This document shows positions 9,367 through 19,061 of a stretch of 64,000 bases of DNA, piece by piece. Below the pieces are notes generated by a model. It was given only the letters and a program-made list of their open reading frames with translations, was not told the DNA's origin and searched no databases. The position numbers and the translations under genes are program-made. How positions within the stretch are numbered: position 1 is the stretch's first letter; every line of letters starts with the position of its first letter. Location of the stretch: contig JBBDUV010000047.1 in NCBI GenBank assembly GCA_040903745.1, forward strand, positions 72,977-136,976. The letters are read 5' to 3'. Source of the DNA: Bacteroidales bacterium. Lineage in GTDB: Bacteria > Bacteroidota > Bacteroidia > Bacteroidales > GCA-2748055.

Positions 9367-9945
9367 ATGAAGAAATTCTCAGATGAAGATATCATACGTG
9401 GTCTCAGGAAACGGGACAACGATGTAATACAATTCATATACACGGAGAATTTCGGGATGGTCAGCTCTATGGTTCTGAAAAACAGTGGGTCCGATGATGA
9501 TTCTGAAGATGTGTTCCAGGAAGCCCTGATCATCGTTTTCAAGCGGTTGCGGGAGGAGCCCGATTTTGAGTTGACCAGCACATTTTCCACCTTTCTTTAT
9601 TCTGTTGCCAGGCTGATCTGGCTGAAGAAGATCAGGGAGGACAAGAAAATGGAAGTTACGGAGTTGAAGAGGGAGATGGAGGAGTTTATTGAGTTCGAAG
9701 AGCCGCCCCCGGTGCAGGATAAGGATTTGAGGATGGCTGTATACCAGCGCAATCTAATTCTTATTCCGGAAGATTGTCAGAAGATACTTGTTCTTACCGG
9801 GCAGAATATCTCAGCGAAGGAGATCGCTGAGAAGTTGGGTTTCAGGAGTGATACCTATGTTAGGAAGCGAAGGCATTTTTGCAAGGAATTTCTGGCGAAC
9901 CGCATTAAGGAGGACAAAGCGTACCAGGCGTTGCTGGATGACTAA
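9367..9945 (+). CDS. Sigma-70 family (ECF-like) RNA polymerase sigma factor
   Basis: A region 2-like segment reads DVFQEALIIVFKRL...FSTFLYSVARLIWL. A region 4 HTH reads ILVLTGQNISAKEIAEKLGFRSDTYVRKRRHFC. Confidence 0.8.
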   Translation: MKKFSDEDIIRGLRKRDNDVIQFIYTENFGMVSSMVLKNSGSDDDSEDVFQEALIIVFKRLREEPDFELTSTFSTFLYSVARLIWLKKIREDKKMEVTELKREMEEFIEFEEPPPVQDKDLRMAVYQRNLILIPEDCQKILVLTGQNISAKEIAEKLGFRSDTYVRKRRHFCKEFLANRIKEDKAYQALLDD

Positions 9946-10064: not shown

Positions 10065-12866
10065 CTAACTAACAATCTGTTTATTGCTCTTAAAGATTTT
10101 TCTTATCTGCTTTTTATAAGTAAATAGCAGAATGAGTAGTGTTAATCCTGTTATAATAACTGCCAGATAGAAACCTGCAGATCTGCTGTGTAGCGGACTG
10201 TTGTTACCCACTATCATGAAAGCTGACCAGAAGTAGGGGTTGGCTTTCAGTTTGTCGGAGGAGGTTATATAGTCTATTTTGGCTTCCCGGAGCGCTCTCT
10301 TTTTGTTTCTACCTTTTTTGAGGTAGTTATAGAATCCACTCATCAGTTCGGCGCTGGACTGGTCCGATACCTGCCAGAGGGTCATGACAATACTGGGGCA
10401 ACCCGCGTAGATAAAACCACGGGCCATGCTCATCATTCCCTCACCCTTTTGCATTTTACCGTATCCACTGGAGCAGGAGCTCAGCACCACCATTTCTGCG
10501 TTCAGCTTCATGTTATAGATCTCATAGGTAAAGAGGTTATGGTCCTGGGTGGTATCGCTAAAATCTCTGGCAAAAGCCAGTTTCGAGAACATCGGGTTTT
10601 CGTCATCCATGATCGTATGCATGGCAAGGTGCAGAACTTTGTAATCGGAAGCGTATTGTTTAAAGTTGCTCTCCGTAGCTTCGTAGTCCATAAACACTTC
10701 AGAGGGCATGGTTTTGGAAATGTATTCGACCTCTCTTTTTGCACCTGGCAGCGGCATCAGGAAATCGGGATTTGACTGGCGGTTCCAGACCAGTGGAACA
10801 TCGTCATCCAGAAGGTTCTCATATTCTGGCGCAAAGGCCAGCACTTTTGCATGCGGTGATTTTGTCCTGATCCTTTCACTGAAAAGCAGGGTGGAGGAAT
10901 GGGAATAACCGACTGACAAGTCATGAATAAGGTAGGGCAGATCGCGGTAATTGATATACTCTTTATCGACATCGGCTGTGATAAACGAATCGAAGGGGAG
11001 GTACATGATGGCTCCGTCGGGCACAAAAGTAATCTCGCGACTGTCGGTTACATCAAGCACGGGCTTTACAAGGACCTCATAAAACATTTGTCCGAGCGTT
11101 ACATATTCCCTGTAGGTTTCCCGAACATTTTTACTGAAATCCTGGTTTTGAAGCAGTTTATAGTATGCAAAGCAGTTTTCATGGAATTCAGGTTCAATTT
11201 TCTGTGTAAGCACCTTGATCTGTTTCTTATCGATTATAAAAGTGGTCAATATAGAATCAGACAAAACATATTCTACAATACATTCATTTTTTTTGAGTTT
11301 TTCCTGTGCCTCCTTCAGTGTAATGAAATTCGGTTTATATTTTAATTCAAAATATCGGGGGTAGTTTCTTTCTATGGAATCAATAAGAGAATTGTAATTA
11401 TCTTTTAGCTTAAAAAAAGAATTATTATAATTTCTCAACACTTCTTCGTTTGGTTTAATCTTAGACTTTTCTTCATATATTAGTTCAGTATATGCTTCTA
11501 TTTTTCTTGTTAAGTTTATTTCATTATTTTTTACTTCAGGGGGTAGCCCAGAAAAATGCATTGCTTCACCACCTTTAATTTCAGAATATAAAGAAAAGGC
11601 TTTCATGTTTTCTGCATATTGAAATGCTTTTTCTAAGTATTCATGATTAGCAGTGATATTAAATAATTTTGAGGCTACATCAACTGCTTCATGAATAATA
11701 GTAATTCTTTTTTGAGATTCTAAGTGAATACTCTCAGGATTTCTCATATGTAGCCTGAAAACTTTTAAATATTCTATACTTCTAGAGTAGTTTTCTAATG
11801 AAAGTTTTAAATCATTAATATTATTAGTTTCATTGTATAACTTTCGAGCTGCATCTGCGTACAATTTGAAGAAATCAATAATATCTCTATTATAAGCGCG
11901 TTCATTCAAAATGTTATAAGCAGCATCAGAGTTATTATTTATATCTGATAATTTATTAATAGTCGTTGATAACCAAGCAATGCAATTATTATAATTCCCT
12001 TTTAAGTAATGTATATTACCAATTAATAAATATGTTTGATATAGCTTTTCAAATGAAGTCGATTCAGTATTATTCGTAATTTCTAAATTATTTAATAAAT
12101 ATTGCAGTGCAATATCATAATTCCCCAATTTAACATTTATAGAGGCTACCCTAAAGTTGTACAACATATGCAATGGGCTATTTGGATATAAACACTTATC
12201 GTATATATCTTTAGCAGTGTTAGTCTCAATTAATGCTAATTCAAGTTTAGACATTCTACTATATGCTTCTGCTAGAAATAAGTGCTTATAGTAATCTAAT
12301 CTTGGATTATTAGCTACAAATCCTAGCTCATTTAGAAATGAAATTGCTTCTTCAATTCTATCCTGAGTAATTAAAATATTAAAAAGATTAATATATGGTT
12401 TTACAAATACATCCGTATTTAATGGCATGTGAGTACTAAAGAAGTCAAGACAATAATTATAATACAATTCTGCTTCACTAAAATCTGAAAAACTGTAGTA
12501 AACATTACCCTTATTGTTATATATATAACCTAAAAACTCTGAGTTAGGATCATGCTCTGAAAAGTAATTCTCCGCAATATTTAAGTGCTTAAGTGCTTTT
12601 TGAAAATTATTTAGATTTCTGTAAATAACACTTAAATTCACATGTGTTGAAGCTGTTTTTGAATGGAATTTACCTAGAGATGCTTCCTGTAATTCCAGTG
12701 TCTTAAGAAGATAATATTCAGCACTATCGTAATTGCCTTGTTTTAAGTAATTAAATCCGGGTTTGTTATATGAGTCAATAAGTTTCTTTGTATCAATATA
12801 CTCTTGTCCAATTATAGTATTGATAAATCCTAATCCAAGAGATAATATGTAGATTATTGTTTTCAC
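10065..12866 (-). CDS. TPR-repeat CHAT-domain (caspase-like) protease with signal peptide and C-terminal TM anchor
   Basis: The CHAT dyad context is intact (VLHLAMHT and VVLSSCSSGYG). About 600 aa of TPR-like repeats lie upstream of it. A C-terminal TM reads FYLAVIITGLTLLILLF. The likely start is GTG at 12866 (MKTIIYILSLGLGF); the ORF stays open to 12947. Confidence 0.8.
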   Translation of the reverse strand: MKTIIYILSLGLGFINTIIGQEYIDTKKLIDSYNKPGFNYLKQGNYDSAEYYLLKTLELQEASLGKFHSKTASTHVNLSVIYRNLNNFQKALKHLNIAENYFSEHDPNSEFLGYIYNNKGNVYYSFSDFSEAELYYNYCLDFFSTHMPLNTDVFVKPYINLFNILITQDRIEEAISFLNELGFVANNPRLDYYKHLFLAEAYSRMSKLELALIETNTAKDIYDKCLYPNSPLHMLYNFRVASINVKLGNYDIALQYLLNNLEITNNTESTSFEKLYQTYLLIGNIHYLKGNYNNCIAWLSTTINKLSDINNNSDAAYNILNERAYNRDIIDFFKLYADAARKLYNETNNINDLKLSLENYSRSIEYLKVFRLHMRNPESIHLESQKRITIIHEAVDVASKLFNITANHEYLEKAFQYAENMKAFSLYSEIKGGEAMHFSGLPPEVKNNEINLTRKIEAYTELIYEEKSKIKPNEEVLRNYNNSFFKLKDNYNSLIDSIERNYPRYFELKYKPNFITLKEAQEKLKKNECIVEYVLSDSILTTFIIDKKQIKVLTQKIEPEFHENCFAYYKLLQNQDFSKNVRETYREYVTLGQMFYEVLVKPVLDVTDSREITFVPDGAIMYLPFDSFITADVDKEYINYRDLPYLIHDLSVGYSHSSTLLFSERIRTKSPHAKVLAFAPEYENLLDDDVPLVWNRQSNPDFLMPLPGAKREVEYISKTMPSEVFMDYEATESNFKQYASDYKVLHLAMHTIMDDENPMFSKLAFARDFSDTTQDHNLFTYEIYNMKLNAEMVVLSSCSSGYGKMQKGEGMMSMARGFIYAGCPSIVMTLWQVSDQSSAELMSGFYNYLKKGRNKKRALREAKIDYITSSDKLKANPYFWSAFMIVGNNSPLHSRSAGFYLAVIITGLTLLILLFTYKKQIRKIFKSNKQIVS

Positions 12867-13028
12867 GATGTTTAAAAAAAGTAAAATAATTTCATGATTA
12901 CAAATAGAATGGTATTTATTTATATTTCGTAAAGTACATAAAAGCAAATAGTTAAGACTTCGATCAATTATTTTTTTATTTTTCTGTTTTTATTTGGGTA
13001 ACGTTTGGGGTGTTTTTGGAATAAAGGG

Positions 13029-13064
13029 TTGAACGATCAACAAAACATGTATGAACCCTAATTA
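13029..13064. repeat. Left arm of an inverted-repeat pair (TTGAACGATCAA ... CCCTAATTA)
   Basis: The exact reverse complements of both blocks recur at 15459-15480. Confidence 0.7.
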
Positions 13065-13075
13065 ACAAAAACGTC

Positions 13076-13213
13076 ATGAAAACATTAAAAACAACAATCG
13101 ATTCTTTTGTAACGGATGCAATTACAAGAAATGAAATGAATTATCTTTTTGGAGGAGGTGAACCAATAGATATGATTATTCCTCCTGATGATGATGATGA
13201 AGAGCCGAAATAG
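13076..13213 (+). CDS. Small GG-leader peptide precursor (45 aa), absent from the ORF track
   Basis: ATG to TAG encodes MKTLKTTIDSFVTDAITRNEMNYLFGGGEPIDMIIPPDDDDEEPK. The leader pattern (L/I)xxxEMxxxxGG resembles Bacteroidota double-glycine bacteriocin/RiPP leaders. Confidence 0.5.
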   Translation: MKTLKTTIDSFVTDAITRNEMNYLFGGGEPIDMIIPPDDDDEEPK

Positions 13214-13754
13214 TTAAACTCAACAAAGAATTTTTGCACTCCTGACATTTTTTGTCAGAGTGGGACCTTCAACAGTTGCGAAAACGTTCGAACTGTCATG
13301 TGTAGAAAAATATATAGCCGGGGAGTATGCAACGACATGCGGTACCGGAAGATATAGGACAAGCACCCTTGTGTTTCTTTCATAGAGCTTCAATGTATCA
13401 TTGCATTGAGTCGCCAAATGGAAGATATATCAAGAAGGAAAGTTAGATTCTTCCATTGAGCCGAAGTAGTTCATGCTGCTTTAAGCGACACGGATGACTT
13501 TAACAGACCAACAGGAGGTAATTATATTCTTGAGCAGGGAAAAGCGGTTGGATAGCTTTTGGCTGACTGAATGCATAAAAACTGAATGTGCTATGTCCAC
13601 CCTTCAGTGAAACATAAAGTGGCACTGAGGCCGGAACAAACCAGACAGATGACCAGTGAACCATCGGGTTTCATCGGCCCGCAGTAATTAAAATCTACTG
13701 AAAAGCTGGAGCACTCCGGATTGTTATACATGAAATATTAATTTATATACTGAT

Positions 13755-14507
13755 ATGAAACGAGACAGACATTTTATCCAGAAATACCTCGATAATGACC
13801 TTTCAGACAAGGACATGAAGAGGTTTGAAGCAGATCTCGAAGTCAGTTCTCAACTTCAAAACGACCTGGCATTATACCGGGAAATTGATGAAGCGCTAAC
13901 CGATACGGAAGTATTGGGATTCAGAGAACAGCTTACAGATTTGCGACGAGAAAAACAAAAAGGTGGAGGGACCGGAAAGGGACCGATCCGCTTTACAAAA
14001 CCATGGCATTATGCTGCAACGGCAGCAATTGCACTGTTCCTGGCCATTGGCCTGGCATCTATACTTGACAGGCCCTTGGATAACAAGGACCTGCTTAAAA
14101 AGTACTACAAACCTTATGAGGTGGCATTGATCAACAGGTCAGACAATTCAACGGTCGACCTGATCCTGAAAAATGCAGAGATCCTCTATCAGAGGGGAGA
14201 GTTTAAGCAAGCTGCCATATATTTTGAAAAGGTGCTGGAAGAGCAACCTGATCTGGCAGGAACCAACCTCTATACAGGTATATCGTATTATGAACTTGAA
14301 CGATATTACGATGCCAAAAATTCATTGAACAGGGTGATCGAACACAACGATAACCTCTACATTGAACAGGCTGAGTGGTACCTGGGACTCTGCTTCCTCG
14401 CTCTCGAAGAGAATGATCGGGCAATAAGACAATTTGCCAGGATCGCTTCAGGCAACAGTGATAAGGCAACTGATGCCAGAAAGTTGCTGAGAAAGATCCG
14501 TAGATAG
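13755..14507 (+). CDS. Single-pass membrane TPR protein with an anti-sigma-like N-terminus
   Basis: The N-terminal helix reads FIQKYLDNDLSDKDMKRFEADL. The TM reads YAATAAIALFLAIGLASIL. The C-terminus carries TPR repeats. There is no zinc-finger Cys/His. Confidence 0.5.
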   Translation: MKRDRHFIQKYLDNDLSDKDMKRFEADLEVSSQLQNDLALYREIDEALTDTEVLGFREQLTDLRREKQKGGGTGKGPIRFTKPWHYAATAAIALFLAIGLASILDRPLDNKDLLKKYYKPYEVALINRSDNSTVDLILKNAEILYQRGEFKQAAIYFEKVLEEQPDLAGTNLYTGISYYELERYYDAKNSLNRVIEHNDNLYIEQAEWYLGLCFLALEENDRAIRQFARIASGNSDKATDARKLLRKIRR

Positions 14508-14552
14508 CAGAGACAACAGTTCAGCGGAACAATACACGCTTTTTATTGTGAA

Positions 14553-15410
14553 ATGATCAGAGAGAGATTTTATTCTGGAATGGAAATGGATCCGACATAT
14601 GAGGAGTTGCTATCTGACAACAGGAAACTGAAGCAGAAGCTGGAGTGGCTGGAAGGTGTTTATCATAGTCACAGAGATGCCGGAGAACAAGTGAAGGAGA
14701 AATTCCTGTCCAATATGTCTCACGAGATCAGGACACCAATGAATTCAATTCTGGGATTTGCAAATCTCCTGAACGATAACCAGCTAACAGAGAATGAGAG
14801 GGATGAATACTTATATTATATCACACACAGTAGCCGGACGCTCTTAAAAGTATTGGATAATATGATCGATCTGACCTTACTGGAGACCAAAGGTCTTAAA
14901 ATGAGGCGGGAGGAGATCTATGCAGAGGACCTGTTTAAAGAGATCTATGAGTTTTTTAATTCAAGGGTGGCTCGAACGATGCACTATCGGATAGCATTGT
15001 TAATGACAATCCCAACACAGTATGGAAGGATCACATTGGAGGCCGATGGATACAGGTTAAAACGAATTATTGAAAACTTGATTAGCAGCGCGTTCAATCA
15101 TCAGATCAAGGGTGTGATTGAAATGAGGATGGATGTAAAAGATGAGAATAGAATCGTCTTTACCGTGATAAGTAGTAAAAATGAGTTGCTCGAAGAACGG
15201 GCAAAAATGATCTTTGAAAATAATGGTAGTACGGATGACTGGCATAACCAGCTAGACTCCACGGGCCTTTCTTATAAATTGGCACGTGATTTGGCTCATG
15301 CCATGGGAGGCTCTGTCAGTCTGAAAAAGGTGAGTGAAAAGAGAATGGGAATATCAGTCGATCTGCCAATAAAGCGTATCGGCTATATTAAAAAAAAAAG
15401 AGTCGCCTGA
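14553..15410 (+). CDS. Soluble histidine kinase-like protein with a degenerate ATP-binding domain
   Basis: The H-box SNMSHEIRTPMNSILGF is intact. There is no TM segment. G1 (DxGxG) is absent and G2 is degenerate (DSTGLSYKL). Confidence 0.7.
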   Translation: MIRERFYSGMEMDPTYEELLSDNRKLKQKLEWLEGVYHSHRDAGEQVKEKFLSNMSHEIRTPMNSILGFANLLNDNQLTENERDEYLYYITHSSRTLLKVLDNMIDLTLLETKGLKMRREEIYAEDLFKEIYEFFNSRVARTMHYRIALLMTIPTQYGRITLEADGYRLKRIIENLISSAFNHQIKGVIEMRMDVKDENRIVFTVISSKNELLEERAKMIFENNGSTDDWHNQLDSTGLSYKLARDLAHAMGGSVSLKKVSEKRMGISVDLPIKRIGYIKKKRVA

Positions 15411-15458
15411 AAACGTTACAGCACTGTTGAATTGAACGGGAATTGATGTAGCTCCCAA

Positions 15459-15480
15459 TAATTAGGGATTGATCGTTCAA
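15459..15480. repeat. Right arm of the inverted-repeat pair (TAATTAGGG a TTGATCGTTCAA)
   Basis: Reverse complement of the blocks at 13029-13064. Confidence 0.7.
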
Positions 15481-15484
15481 AACA

Positions 15485-15904
15485 TTAAAAGGGGAGGTCA
15501 TCAAATCCCGAATCATCAACAGGCGGATCTTCCGGAAAAGGAGCCTGGTTGTCTGACGTAACCGTATTCTGATCTTGTACGCCCGGTGTATTGGGGTTAA
15601 TACTTGTTGATTGTTCGTTTTCAATCTTCCAGGCATCAAGGTTAGTAAAATACGAAGTCTGACCATCTTTCTCCCACTTTCTTCCACGAAGGTTGAAACT
15701 CACCTTCGCCTGGTCGTTCACATTCAATCCGTCAAGTAAACTGCACTTGTCCTGCACAGCCTGGAATTTGATGTATTCAATAAACTCAAACCCGCTGCTG
15801 CTGGTTTCCTTCACCTCAAGGATAAACTCTCGTTTCTTAAACTTGTCAGTTACTTGCTGGGTCGGAAAGATCTCAAAGATCCTGCCTGAAATTTCAAAGC
15901 TCAT
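15485..15904 (-). CDS. DUF3127 domain-containing protein
   Basis: The N-terminus MSFEISGRIFEIFPTQQVTDKFKKREFILEV is typical of DUF3127. The C-terminal tail is acidic. Confidence 0.75.
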   Translation of the reverse strand: MSFEISGRIFEIFPTQQVTDKFKKREFILEVKETSSSGFEFIEYIKFQAVQDKCSLLDGLNVNDQAKVSFNLRGRKWEKDGQTSYFTNLDAWKIENEQSTSINPNTPGVQDQNTVTSDNQAPFPEDPPVDDSGFDDLPF

Positions 15905-16010
15905 AGTTAATTGTTGTTTTATATATCATGACAAAACTAGTAAAAACCACTGCATTTTTTGTGCAGTAAAAAACATTACAGAAGAAAAGCCAATTTATTC
16001 TGATAGAAAA

Positions 16011-17819: not shown

Positions 17820-19061
17820 ATGAAAGTTAGATTTTACATTGAGAAGCGGCGAGGAAAGGATGGAAGATTATTGACCAGCAGAAGGCCGATATTCATGACG
17901 GTCGCTTTTCATGGTAAAAGGGTATTGATCTCCACCGGAAAAAATGTTGATCTGAAATGGTGGGATCATACGAAGCAGCAGGTGAGAGAGATGCATCCGG
18001 ATGCATCCGTTATCAATAGATGGCTCGAAACATTAGCGTATACCGCCGGCACTGTCTGGAAGTCGCTGGCAAGCCTGTCTGAGAATCCCGGGGTAGGGGA
18101 GTTTCGCGATGAATTTGAGCGGTTGAGACCCCGGTTTTCAGGAGGGTTCTTTGACATCATGTTTCTGTTCATGGAAGAGGGTTCCAGGCGTTGGAGTATA
18201 AGTACATACCAAAAAGTTCGAACCTTCTATAACCAGCTGAAAGAGTTCGAAAAGTCAGAGATGTATCCTCTTCATTTTAACACCATGAATGAATCGTTTC
18301 TTTATCGGTTTCGCGATTATCTTGAGAAAAAAAGCAGGTCGGAATCCACCATCAGAAAGATGGTAAACCTGCTCGTTTGGTACCTGAACTGGGCTACAAA
18401 AAATGGGTACAATGTGTATTACGATTACCGGGGTTTTTATAAAATGCTTGATAAAGGAAGTGCAACGGAAAAAATCCCGGCAAAGTGCGAACCTGTTTAC
18501 CTGGAATGGGATGAGCTGTTGCGGTTCCTGAAGCATTCGCCATGCACAACTGTGAAAGAACGTGTCAGGGACCTCTTTTGTTTGAGTTGTTTCACCGGAC
18601 TAAGATTCGGAGAGTTGCGGAACCTGACTAAGGAGGATGTAATGGCATCCTCTGTTATTGTGAGAAAAGGTGACAGTAAGGTGAGATATGTTCCGGTAAG
18701 CAAATATGCTGCGGTGATCCTCGAAAAATATAAGCACCGTTACTACCGTGACAATGCGGCGCTGCCACCCGTGAGCGCGATGACGGTGAACAAGTACCTG
18801 AGGGTCATGGCGAAGGAATTGAAACTTGAGCGGACGGTTGCCGTGGGTATCGGAAGCAGACGAAGGGCGATGCTTTGGGAGGTGCTAACGGCCGGAGCCG
18901 GGGTCCAGACTTTTATCATGCATGCGCTCAGACTGGAAATCCCTGCGGATGTCATAGCCTCGTTTACCGGTGTAACGAGCGATCATCGCATCAAACTCAT
19001 GAAACAGGAATTGGCAATGAAAGAGATAAAGAAATTCGATTTGATAGAACATTCTCAGTAA
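17820..19061 (+). CDS. Tyrosine-recombinase-family (phage integrase-like) protein, apparently lacking the nucleophile Tyr
   Basis: The layout is a Bacteroidota-type integrase. Box I reads TGLRFGELRNL and HxxR is present (MHALR). No Tyr occurs in the 42 residues after HALR. Confidence 0.7.
   Translation: MKVRFYIEKRRGKDGRLLTSRRPIFMTVAFHGKRVLISTGKNVDLKWWDHTKQQVREMHPDASVINRWLETLAYTAGTVWKSLASLSENPGVGEFRDEFERLRPRFSGGFFDIMFLFMEEGSRRWSISTYQKVRTFYNQLKEFEKSEMYPLHFNTMNESFLYRFRDYLEKKSRSESTIRKMVNLLVWYLNWATKNGYNVYYDYRGFYKMLDKGSATEKIPAKCEPVYLEWDELLRFLKHSPCTTVKERVRDLFCLSCFTGLRFGELRNLTKEDVMASSVIVRKGDSKVRYVPVSKYAAVILEKYKHRYYRDNAALPPVSAMTVNKYLRVMAKELKLERTVAVGIGSRRRAMLWEVLTAGAGVQTFIMHALRLEIPADVIASFTGVTSDHRIKLMKQELAMKEIKKFDLIEHSQ

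Follow-up and report, generated by a model that had tools for sequence, protein, structure and literature searches.

Peptides with double-glycine leaders are known as class II bacteriocins, as precursors of peptides that are ribosomally synthesised and modified post-translationally (RiPPs) and as pheromones of Gram-positive streptococci, such as ComC and BlpC. The classical leader is about 15–30 amino acids long, ends in GG and carries a hydrophobic residue at position −12, S or T at −11, E at −8, L or M at −7 and I, L or V at −4. Among the Bacteroidetes, the bacteroidetocins are double-glycine leader peptides (PMC6671954). Here we describe a 45-amino-acid open reading frame (ORF) with a predicted leader of this kind, at positions 13076–13213 (plus strand) of a 64,000-nt stretch of contig JBBDUV010000047.1 from a Bacteroidales bacterium (assembly GCA_040903745.1); the whole stretch is hereafter called the window. 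The ORF lies among genes for a TPR-CHAT protease, an anti-sigma-like protein and a sigma factor of the extracytoplasmic function (ECF) type. Our overall reading, held tentatively and with somewhat less than even confidence, is that it encodes an exported linear peptide tied to this module.

Regulatory circuits of related design have been described elsewhere. The periplasmic TPR-CHAT part of DdvA, in the DdvA/DdvS system of Myxococcus xanthus, has been proposed to act, once activated by a signal, as site-1 protease for an ECF sigma factor (PMC11506125; PDB 8rot). The signal activating DdvA is unknown, and a protein or peptide docking on the TPR-CHAT part has been proposed (PMC11506125). In the type III-E Craspase, the TPR-CHAT protein Csx29 cleaves the sigma inhibitor Csx30, freeing the ECF-type CASP-sigma (PMC10028731). 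For microbisporicin, export of the peptide is thought to release the sigma factor MibX from its membrane anti-sigma factor MibW in a feed-forward manner (PMC4203916).

The peptide gene and its predicted leader and core

The ORF begins with ATG, and its translation, MKTLKTTIDSFVTDAITRNEMNYLFGGGEPIDMIIPPDDDDEEPK, is identical letter for letter to that written by a first-pass annotation of this DNA, which had proposed an unannotated protein-coding gene. The ORF was absent from the ORF list used for that annotation, and annotation overlooks the gene. A word-based search found five homologues of the peptide, and a profile search of 1.8 billion representatives returned 15 matches at E ≤ 0.001, of which 13 were peptides. 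A combined profile/word search yielded 64 clusters of 35–67 amino acids, all of them unnamed or 'hypothetical', from Bacteroidales metagenome-assembled genomes and metagenomes. The family profile used below comprises 65 sequences anchored on the GG.

The first-pass annotation had proposed examining conservation in related genomes and the synonymous/non-synonymous pattern, and both point to a coding sequence. The start (MKT) is kept in 14 loci, every indel is a multiple of three nucleotides and the stop falls within 38–54 codons. Ratios of non-synonymous to synonymous substitution rates (dN/dS, Nei–Gojobori) were 0.18–0.43 for divergent pairs, these being loci with near-saturated synonymous sites, and the closest pairs were uninformative (2.0 for the window against L001, with 13 changes in total, and 0.63 against L002). 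Between the window and L003, the stretch GGGEPIDMIIPP is changed at third positions only. The peptide ORF is intact in L001, although several other genes there are split. Thus, with its conserved homologues, kept frame and dN/dS below 1, 13076–13213 is almost certainly a real gene under purifying selection.

The 27 N-terminal residues (codons 1–27, 13076–13156, plus strand; MKTLKTTIDSFVTDAITRNEMNYLFGG) form a predicted double-glycine leader, as judged from the profile of 65 relatives and from sub-threshold alignments to TIGR04149. The resemblance to a GG-type leader noted in the first-pass annotation was borne out, in that these residues carry all the canonical positions (ITRNEMNYLFGG). The pattern [LIVM][ST]xxE[LM]xx[LIV]xGG matches the window's six-frame translation (128,000 residues) once only, and as that match is the peptide ORF, the leader pattern is more than chance. 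Across the family, F at −17, M, I or L at −12, L, I or V at −4 and G at both −2 and −1 are found in all 65 sequences. Nearly as constant are M at −7 and F or Y at −5 (64/65 each), N at −6 (61/65), T or S at −11 (59/65), A at −13 (58/65), R or K at −3 (57/65) and E at −8 (55/65). A third glycine, at +1, is present in 46 of the 65; since it varies while G26–G27 are invariant, the predicted cut falls after G27 and leaves a core of 18 residues, GEPIDMIIPPDDDDEEPK. This corrects two details of the first-pass annotation, which had placed the EM pair at −9/−8 and given a 17-residue core; with only the first two glycines invariant, the pair becomes E−8 and M−7, the canonical positions. Length variation among relatives begins directly after the GG.

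We scanned the peptides against hidden Markov models (HMMs). The window peptide had no match in Pfam and none in NCBIfam at E ≤ 10, TIGR04149 (GG_sam_targ_CFB) included. Comparison with TIGR04149-type leaders, suggested by the first-pass annotation, therefore gave a divided answer: weak but consistent matches at E ≤ 10 were obtained in 14 of the 21 relatives scanned (best E 0.0005), whereas the window peptide gave none and all scores lay below the curated cut-off of 25 bits. Seven of ten relatives shown individually scored 12.5–17.4 bits (E 0.003–0.11), and the alignments placed leader residues 1–28 on profile positions 2–29. The lichenicidin-A2 lantibiotic leader model was touched by three of the 21 relatives (best E 4e-5). 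The leader is thus GG-type and distantly like the Bacteroidales GG family, outside formal TIGR04149 membership. From these sequence features, its processing and export by a C39-type transporter seems reasonably probable. A 311-amino-acid protein in the representative library (P0009) contains five tandem leader-like units (NLKKGIQKLAAFGLNGKEAEFVKGGGLP...), each followed by a short variable segment, and looks like a multi-copy precursor related to the leader of this family.

The predicted core (codons 28–45 plus stop, 13157–13213, plus strand) consists of a linker, the motif D-φ-φ-φ-P-P, where φ is hydrophobic, and a variable acidic tail. The motif pattern fits 62 of the 65 relatives, and in these 62 the linker is rich in G, D, P, E and N. 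The linker from the GG to the Asp is 4–12 residues long and the tail 1–17 residues, acidic or basic, within a core of 11–27 residues across the family. The Asp is kept in more than 90% of members and the PP is invariant or nearly so; DLIIPP is the commonest form of the motif, the window having DMIIPP. Cys is absent from the window core, and the mature parts of 63 of the 65 relatives are likewise free of it.

The neighbouring protease, anti-sigma-like and sigma factor genes

Neighbourhoods were compared in 13 loci with usable flanks, with peptide identity down to ~40%. In all 13, the peptide gene is divergent from a minus-strand TPR-CHAT gene (930–975 amino acids). The protein that the first-pass annotation had placed about 210 nt away is therefore a constant neighbour, its likely GTG start in the window, at 12866, being separated from the peptide ATG by 209 nt. 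On contigs that extend far enough downstream, the peptide gene is followed by an ORF-free spacer, a TPR protein of ~250 amino acids and then a HisKA/HATPase protein of ~285 amino acids. Upstream, every locus that reaches so far, except L017, has an MscS gene and a gene for a 192-amino-acid sigma factor that is convergent with the CHAT gene; DUF3127, FKBP and methyltransferase genes are common to all loci. We agree with the first-pass annotation that no C39 exporter or radical-SAM maturase is nearby: no C39/ATP-binding cassette (ABC) exporter, HlyD or radical-SAM protein was found among the 19 window ORFs scanned with Pfam (the immediate neighbours and ten larger ORFs). PADLOC, run on the five module proteins, returned nothing meaningful, and no defence island is attached. 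On balance, we regard it as probable that the peptide is functionally tied to the CHAT/anti-sigma module.

The TPR-CHAT protein of the window is a caspase-like protease of 933 amino acids (10065–12866, minus strand; Pfam CHAT, 2e-56, and TPR_12). Its likely GTG start heads a signal peptide, and it ends in a C-terminal transmembrane anchor and a basic tail; the TPR and CHAT parts are therefore predicted to face the periplasm. The His/Cys dyad is intact, with HLAMHT and LSSCSSG invariant in eight CHAT orthologues. An AlphaFold2 (AF2) model was of moderate confidence (predicted local distance difference test, pLDDT, 64), and its best Foldseek matches, all with low TM-scores, were DdvA (8rot, 8rw5), the Craspase TPR-CHAT protein (7y8t_B, 8d9h_E, 7xsq_B) and separase. 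The N-terminal part matched the peptide-binding TPR arrays of LGN/Pins and kinesin light chain. Searching the PDB by sequence returned TPR proteins only, such as kinesin light chain, and DdvA and Craspase were reached by the fold search.

Two further observations concern this gene. Its GC content steps from 26–29% in the TPR-encoding 5' 1.5 kb through 33% in the next 300 nt to 46–49% in the CHAT-encoding 3' 900 nt. This step is present in seven of eight orthologues (absent from L017), which argues for an old, maintained feature and not for recent transfer. We do not take the broken CHAT gene in L001 (ENA contig_4333) as a sign of decay; the TPR protein, methyltransferase and integrase genes are frameshifted there too, and the several split genes suggest an indel-prone (long-read) assembly.

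Downstream of the peptide gene, 13755–14507 (plus strand) encodes a single-pass membrane protein of 250 amino acids, with a cytoplasmic helical N-terminus, a hydrophobic transmembrane segment at residues 85–105 and a periplasmic TPR domain (Pfam TPR repeats). Its N-terminus is highly conserved in 10 orthologues, and residues 10–115 have a weak match to the anti-sigma model NF052375 (E 0.0036; 17 bits, the cut-off being 100). The AF2 model was of low confidence (pLDDT 57) and too poor for a fold search. On the strength of its topology and the 17-bit match, the protein appears anti-sigma-like. The following gene (14553–15410, plus strand) encodes a soluble HisKA/HATPase-like protein of 285 amino acids (Pfam HisKA and HATPase_c) with no sensor or transmembrane domain. 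Its canonical H-box, SHEIRTPMNSILGF, is intact and its ATP-binding boxes are eroded: in the sequence we found no DxGxG box, no recognisable G1 box and a vestigial G2 box. No response regulator adjoins the gene, whose product may be a phosphatase, a phosphotransfer protein or a scaffold. The sigma factor (192 amino acids; 9367–9945, plus strand) is of ECF type (TIGR02937, sigma70-ECF, 51.2 bits against a cut-off of 42.9), and its gene has its own invariant housekeeping-type −7 box, TATATTTG. Further downstream, an integrase-like gene (17820–19061, plus strand; Phage_int_SAM_5 and a weak Phage_integrase match) is kept syntenic a few genes from the module in L001, L002, L012–L014 and L016 and is absent from L003 and L017, with no obvious mobile element around it.

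Promoter-like motif, transcript and predicted RNA pairing

Upstream of the peptide gene, a bipartite promoter-like motif, GGGTAACGTTT-N11-GGAATAAA, spans 12996–13025 (plus strand). Both blocks (12996–13006 and 13018–13025) are invariant in 12 loci, even in the most distant (L015 and L017), while the 11-nt spacer varies. The motif does not fit the Bacteroidota housekeeping box TAnnTTTG. ECF promoters have an AAC-containing upstream block and fixed spacing, and the motif is probably read by an alternative, ECF-type sigma factor; we infer that the neighbouring ECF sigma factor may be the one. The window holds a single copy. None was found upstream of the sigma gene or elsewhere in the window, so autoregulation of the sigma gene is not indicated.

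The peptide mRNA is predicted to begin with a stem-loop (13025–13059, plus strand; AGGGUU ... AACCCU) whose loop contains GAACGAUCAAC. This hairpin is predicted in 12 of 12 loci, and the variants of its stem stay paired (GGGUU/AACCC, GGGGU/ACCCC, GGGAU/AUCCC, AGAUAU/GUAUCU and UAACAU/AUGUUA). A second, strong hairpin, GCACUCCUGACA-UUUUU-UGUCAGAGUGGGAC, was found by folding 20 nt past the stop codon (13234–13265, plus strand). It has no U-tail, and hairpins of different sequence occur at the equivalent position in L003 and L007. A terminator scan did not call it, and found no intrinsic terminator after the peptide ORF. Probably this hairpin stabilises the RNA, directs its processing or acts as a leaky terminator, and it may raise the level of the peptide mRNA.

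Between the peptide gene and the 250-amino-acid gene lies a densely structured spacer (13214–13754, plus strand), GC-richer than its flanks, with no ORF longer than 65 amino acids. Its length varies from 220 to 743 nt among loci. Two conserved hairpins (13272–13296 and 13319–13348), with compensatory changes in six of 19 pairs, recur across subgroups together with a GAUGACAUACA-like tail, and the middle part (~13363–13724) is missing in relatives. Rfam gave no match within 11000–16000 at E ≤ 1. The spacer may be an undescribed cis-regulatory or processed RNA. A 194-amino-acid minus-strand ORF in the L003 spacer was discarded as spurious, not being kept in the close relative L007.

Transcription of the peptide gene is supported indirectly, through relatives. 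The window's own organism occurred in no RNA run searched. In two salt-lake metatranscriptomes, contigs of relatives that are 85–93% alike cover 13036–13194 at a word depth of 120–180, and the downstream genes are covered too. One relative's RNA contig skips 13363–13724 and continues out of the conserved spacer portion into the 250-amino-acid gene. As no housekeeping box was found upstream of that gene, no terminator was found and the RNA contig runs through, the peptide gene, spacer, 250-amino-acid gene and kinase-like gene are probably one operon with the peptide as first cistron. Separately, in two DNA runs (X1 and X2), assembly-graph contigs break at 31–32-nt nodes, at 13010–13040 and 13992–14023. 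The depth of these nodes is approximately the sum of that of the flanking contigs, and the first is the invariant promoter/5' untranslated region (UTR) sequence. The breaks are probably shared k-mers, several related module-carrying strains co-occurring in the X1/X2 sediment samples.

The far end of the putative operon is complementary to its start. The 3' element, UAAUUAGGG-A-UUGAUCGUUCAA (15459–15480, plus strand), sits between the kinase-like stop and the convergent DUF3127 stop. Its positions 15469–15480 are the exact complement of 13029–13040, in the 5' hairpin loop, and 15459–15467 that of 13056–13064. Complementarity is kept in every locus reaching the region (L001–L003, L007, L008 and L012–L017), with other sequences in, for example, L013 (5' UTR block TGAACAATCA, 3' block TGATTGTTCA), L015 (TGAGAACAGT and ACTGTTCTCA, the latter in four tandem copies) and L017 (ACAAAACAAC and GTTGTTTTGT). 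Column-wise counting of pairs was dropped, since in three loci MAFFT had displaced the CCCTAATTA block by a column, and was replaced by duplex energies and exact-match tests. Exact runs of 10–12 nt were reached by 0–10 of 500 shuffles and by 0–1 of 67–450 other sequence windows per locus. Duplex energies were −29 to −40 kcal/mol in eight of nine loci, against averages of −14 to −18 for shuffled partners; the L013 duplex (−20.6 kcal/mol) lay inside the range of its own shuffles.

The predicted duplexes reach the start codon. Our preferred reading of the complementarity is that 5'–3' pairing would mask the initiation region of the peptide, or that a 3'-derived RNA would act there. Alternatively, the repeats could be inverted repeats bounding an invertible 2.4-kb segment. 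In L014, L016 and L017, the plus-strand duplex is 6–10 kcal/mol better than the minus-strand one, through G.U pairs, and this speaks more for pairing of a plus-strand transcript than for an inverted repeat of the DNA. In four metagenome runs, the DNA contigs showed one orientation and no strand-switch joints, weak evidence in that contigs drop rare variants. Pairing between the 5' and 3' UTRs of one mRNA has reportedly been found in icaR of Staphylococcus aureus and hbs of Bacillus subtilis. As in those, here the transcript's 3' end and its 5' UTR, as far as the start codon, are complementary, and this could control translation or stability. Unlike them, the pairing here would span ~2.4 kb and three cistrons, involves a 5' hairpin loop and is supported by covariation.

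Possible roles of the peptide and comparison with known systems

If the peptide is exported, the following scheme could apply. The gene product would be a precursor from which a short linear peptide, without modification, is exported. An ABC exporter with a C39 peptidase, its gene lying elsewhere, would recognise the 27-residue leader and cut after G26–G27, releasing some 18 residues whose conserved part is D-φ-φ-φ-P-P. Outside the cytoplasm, the peptide would meet the periplasm-facing TPR-CHAT protease and the anti-sigma-like TPR protein and, as ligand or substrate, would feed back on the ECF sigma factor and hence on its own promoter. By analogy with described circuits, the peptide might be a signal that controls the sigma factor via the protease, a doubtful though not far-fetched proposal. 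We think it somewhat unlikely that the peptide is, more specifically, the self-made exported ligand of a split DdvA-type switch. In such a switch, binding of the peptide to a TPR array, either that of the CHAT protease or that of the anti-sigma-like protein, would trigger caspase-like cleavage of the anti-sigma-like protein, and the ECF sigma factor set free would drive the peptide promoter, with pairing between the operon 3' end and the peptide 5' UTR as an extra RNA layer. For the broader scheme of export and feedback, the precedents of DdvA, Csx29 and microbisporicin make each step plausible.

Several observations weigh against an exported peptide tied to the module. No exporter, HlyD-type partner or maturase was found in the flanks of the 13 related loci, which extends the same result from the window. 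The window's own peptide is without any HMM match, and no member scanned reaches the TIGR04149 cut-off. The sigma gene is non-adjacent in L017. Moreover, the wider synteny is shared, so the constant neighbourhood is largely that of one vertical lineage and co-occurrence weighs less. Finally, the RNA contigs come from relatives in other samples, are assembled and unstranded, and could include DNA.

The best-surviving alternative, which we also consider somewhat unlikely, is a micro-protein that never leaves the cytoplasm. A conserved amphipathic N-terminal helix and the DxxxPP motif would bind a cytoplasmic partner, with the GG as a hinge; candidate partners are the sigma factor, the cytoplasmic N-terminus of the anti-sigma-like protein and the sensor-less kinase-like protein. 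This alternative fits the lack of an exporter near the gene in any locus and the sub-threshold scores of all GG-leader HMM matches, and two of the three putatively co-transcribed partners possess cytoplasmic portions that are conserved. However, a micro-protein would leave unexplained why the canonical leader pattern (−12, −11, −8, −7, −4, −2 and −1) is kept in 65 sequences and why length variation starts exactly past the GG, as at a leader/core junction. In addition, the peptide-binding TPR arrays of the two most striking neighbours lie on the periplasmic side.

Less probable, and in our view unlikely, is an antimicrobial or otherwise bioactive secreted peptide, either one resembling class II bacteriocins or a RiPP whose maturation enzymes are encoded elsewhere, with the sigma/anti-sigma/CHAT set as a producer-side regulation or immunity circuit, as in microbisporicin. 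The first-pass annotation had raised a bacteriocin or modified RiPP, and the leader type is indeed used by bacteriocins and by TIGR04149 RiPP precursors; the three members touching the lichenicidin-A2 leader model point the same way, and an ECF sigma/anti-sigma pair that regulates a secreted peptide has a precedent in microbisporicin (PMC4203916). The core speaks otherwise. Its 11–27 residues are acidic or neutral and Pro-rich; they include no Cys, no clusters of Ser/Thr and no killing domain of amphipathic or hydrophobic character, and one short motif is kept family-wide in place of a toxin-like domain, unlike the usual diversification of toxins. With maturase, immunity gene and exporter all absent from the 13 loci, we found nothing to support that earlier suggestion.

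It is quite unlikely that the ORF is a regulatory upstream ORF whose peptide is itself functionless. Ribosomes would pause at the invariant I-P-P, which has D, P, G, R or K after it, and translation would control the spacer structure or the 5'–3' pairing and hence expression of the anti-sigma-like and kinase-like genes. The ORF is suitably placed, being the first cistron before a structured spacer of 220–743 nt without promoter or terminator consensus; the PP is invariant or nearly so, and the operon 3' end is able to pair with the 5' UTR as far as the AUG. Yet conservation is highest in residues 1–27, which match an export leader, and a peptide that acts by pausing has no need of one. The distance from the PP to the stop varies from 1 to 17 codons, and the spacer sequence adjacent to the stop is unconserved between subgroups, both of which argue against a fixed ribosome–RNA geometry.

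Equally improbable is that the peptide is a substrate or pseudo-substrate of the CHAT protease, its motif Asp being recognised or cut so that the peptide is matured by, or occupies, the enzyme. In its favour, the Asp, kept in nearly all members, precedes a hydrophobic stretch and PP, the dyad is intact in all orthologues and the two genes are always divergent neighbours. Against it, the P1 preferences of the CHAT proteases characterised so far are not for Asp; the cut that Csx29 makes in Csx30 falls within a loop, between residues 427 and 429 (PMC10028731), and export of the peptide would still be required. Lastly, a chance ORF in non-coding DNA, for which only the absence from the earlier ORF list and from Pfam and NCBIfam could be cited, is already refuted by the conservation pattern (at least 65 conserved clusters, a kept frame, dN/dS well below 1 and changes at third positions only), quite apart from the dedicated conserved promoter and the transcription in relatives, and hardly merits credence.

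The double-glycine leader is of a kind already known. In the literature searched, we did not find this peptide family, a Cys-free core with this motif, the pairing with an envelope TPR-CHAT/anti-sigma-like/ECF set or the RNA features. To our knowledge, no peptide-based cell–cell signalling pathway is known in Bacteroidota. If the peptide were the signal, this would be peptide cell–cell signalling in Bacteroidota, an autoinduction (quorum or kin sensing) read by proteolysis.

The peptide resembles other GG-leader peptides in its short precursor, canonical 27-residue leader, invariant GG and a variable region just after it. Unlike them and the TIGR04149 family, it scores below the cut-off and has D-φ-φ-φ-P-P instead of a Cys-rich or toxin-like core. 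TIGR04149 RiPP precursors differ further in their Cys-containing core and their radical-SAM/SPASM maturase, which is not among the neighbours in the window or the 13 loci. GG-leader peptides have a cognate peptidase-C39 ABC transporter in the genome, usually close by; no exporter, maturase or immunity gene was found in the neighbourhood here. The partners are instead TPR-CHAT, anti-sigma-like and ECF sigma proteins and not a two-component receptor of ComDE type.

Microbisporicin shares with the scheme proposed for this locus a ribosomal exported peptide, inactivation of a membrane anti-sigma factor and release of an ECF sigma factor. It differs in being an actinobacterial, heavily modified lantibiotic with a full biosynthetic cluster and without a CHAT protease. 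Craspase contains a TPR-CHAT structural neighbour of the CHAT protein described here. However, Craspase is cytoplasmic, RNA-guided and activated by Cas7-11, whereas here there are no CRISPR genes and the protease is predicted to face the periplasm. In DdvA/DdvS, the one relative of the module to have been characterised, an ECF sigma factor is controlled from the envelope by a periplasmic TPR-CHAT part, as may be the case here; DdvA is the best Foldseek match of the CHAT neighbour. In DdvA, anti-sigma domain, transmembrane helix and TPR-CHAT lie in one polypeptide, the active site is incomplete and there is no associated peptide gene. Here, in contrast, TPR-CHAT is a protein of its own whose dyad is intact, and a small TPR domain is also part of the anti-sigma-like protein. 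A candidate encoded ligand or substrate beside such a putative split DdvA-like switch offers a directly testable handle.

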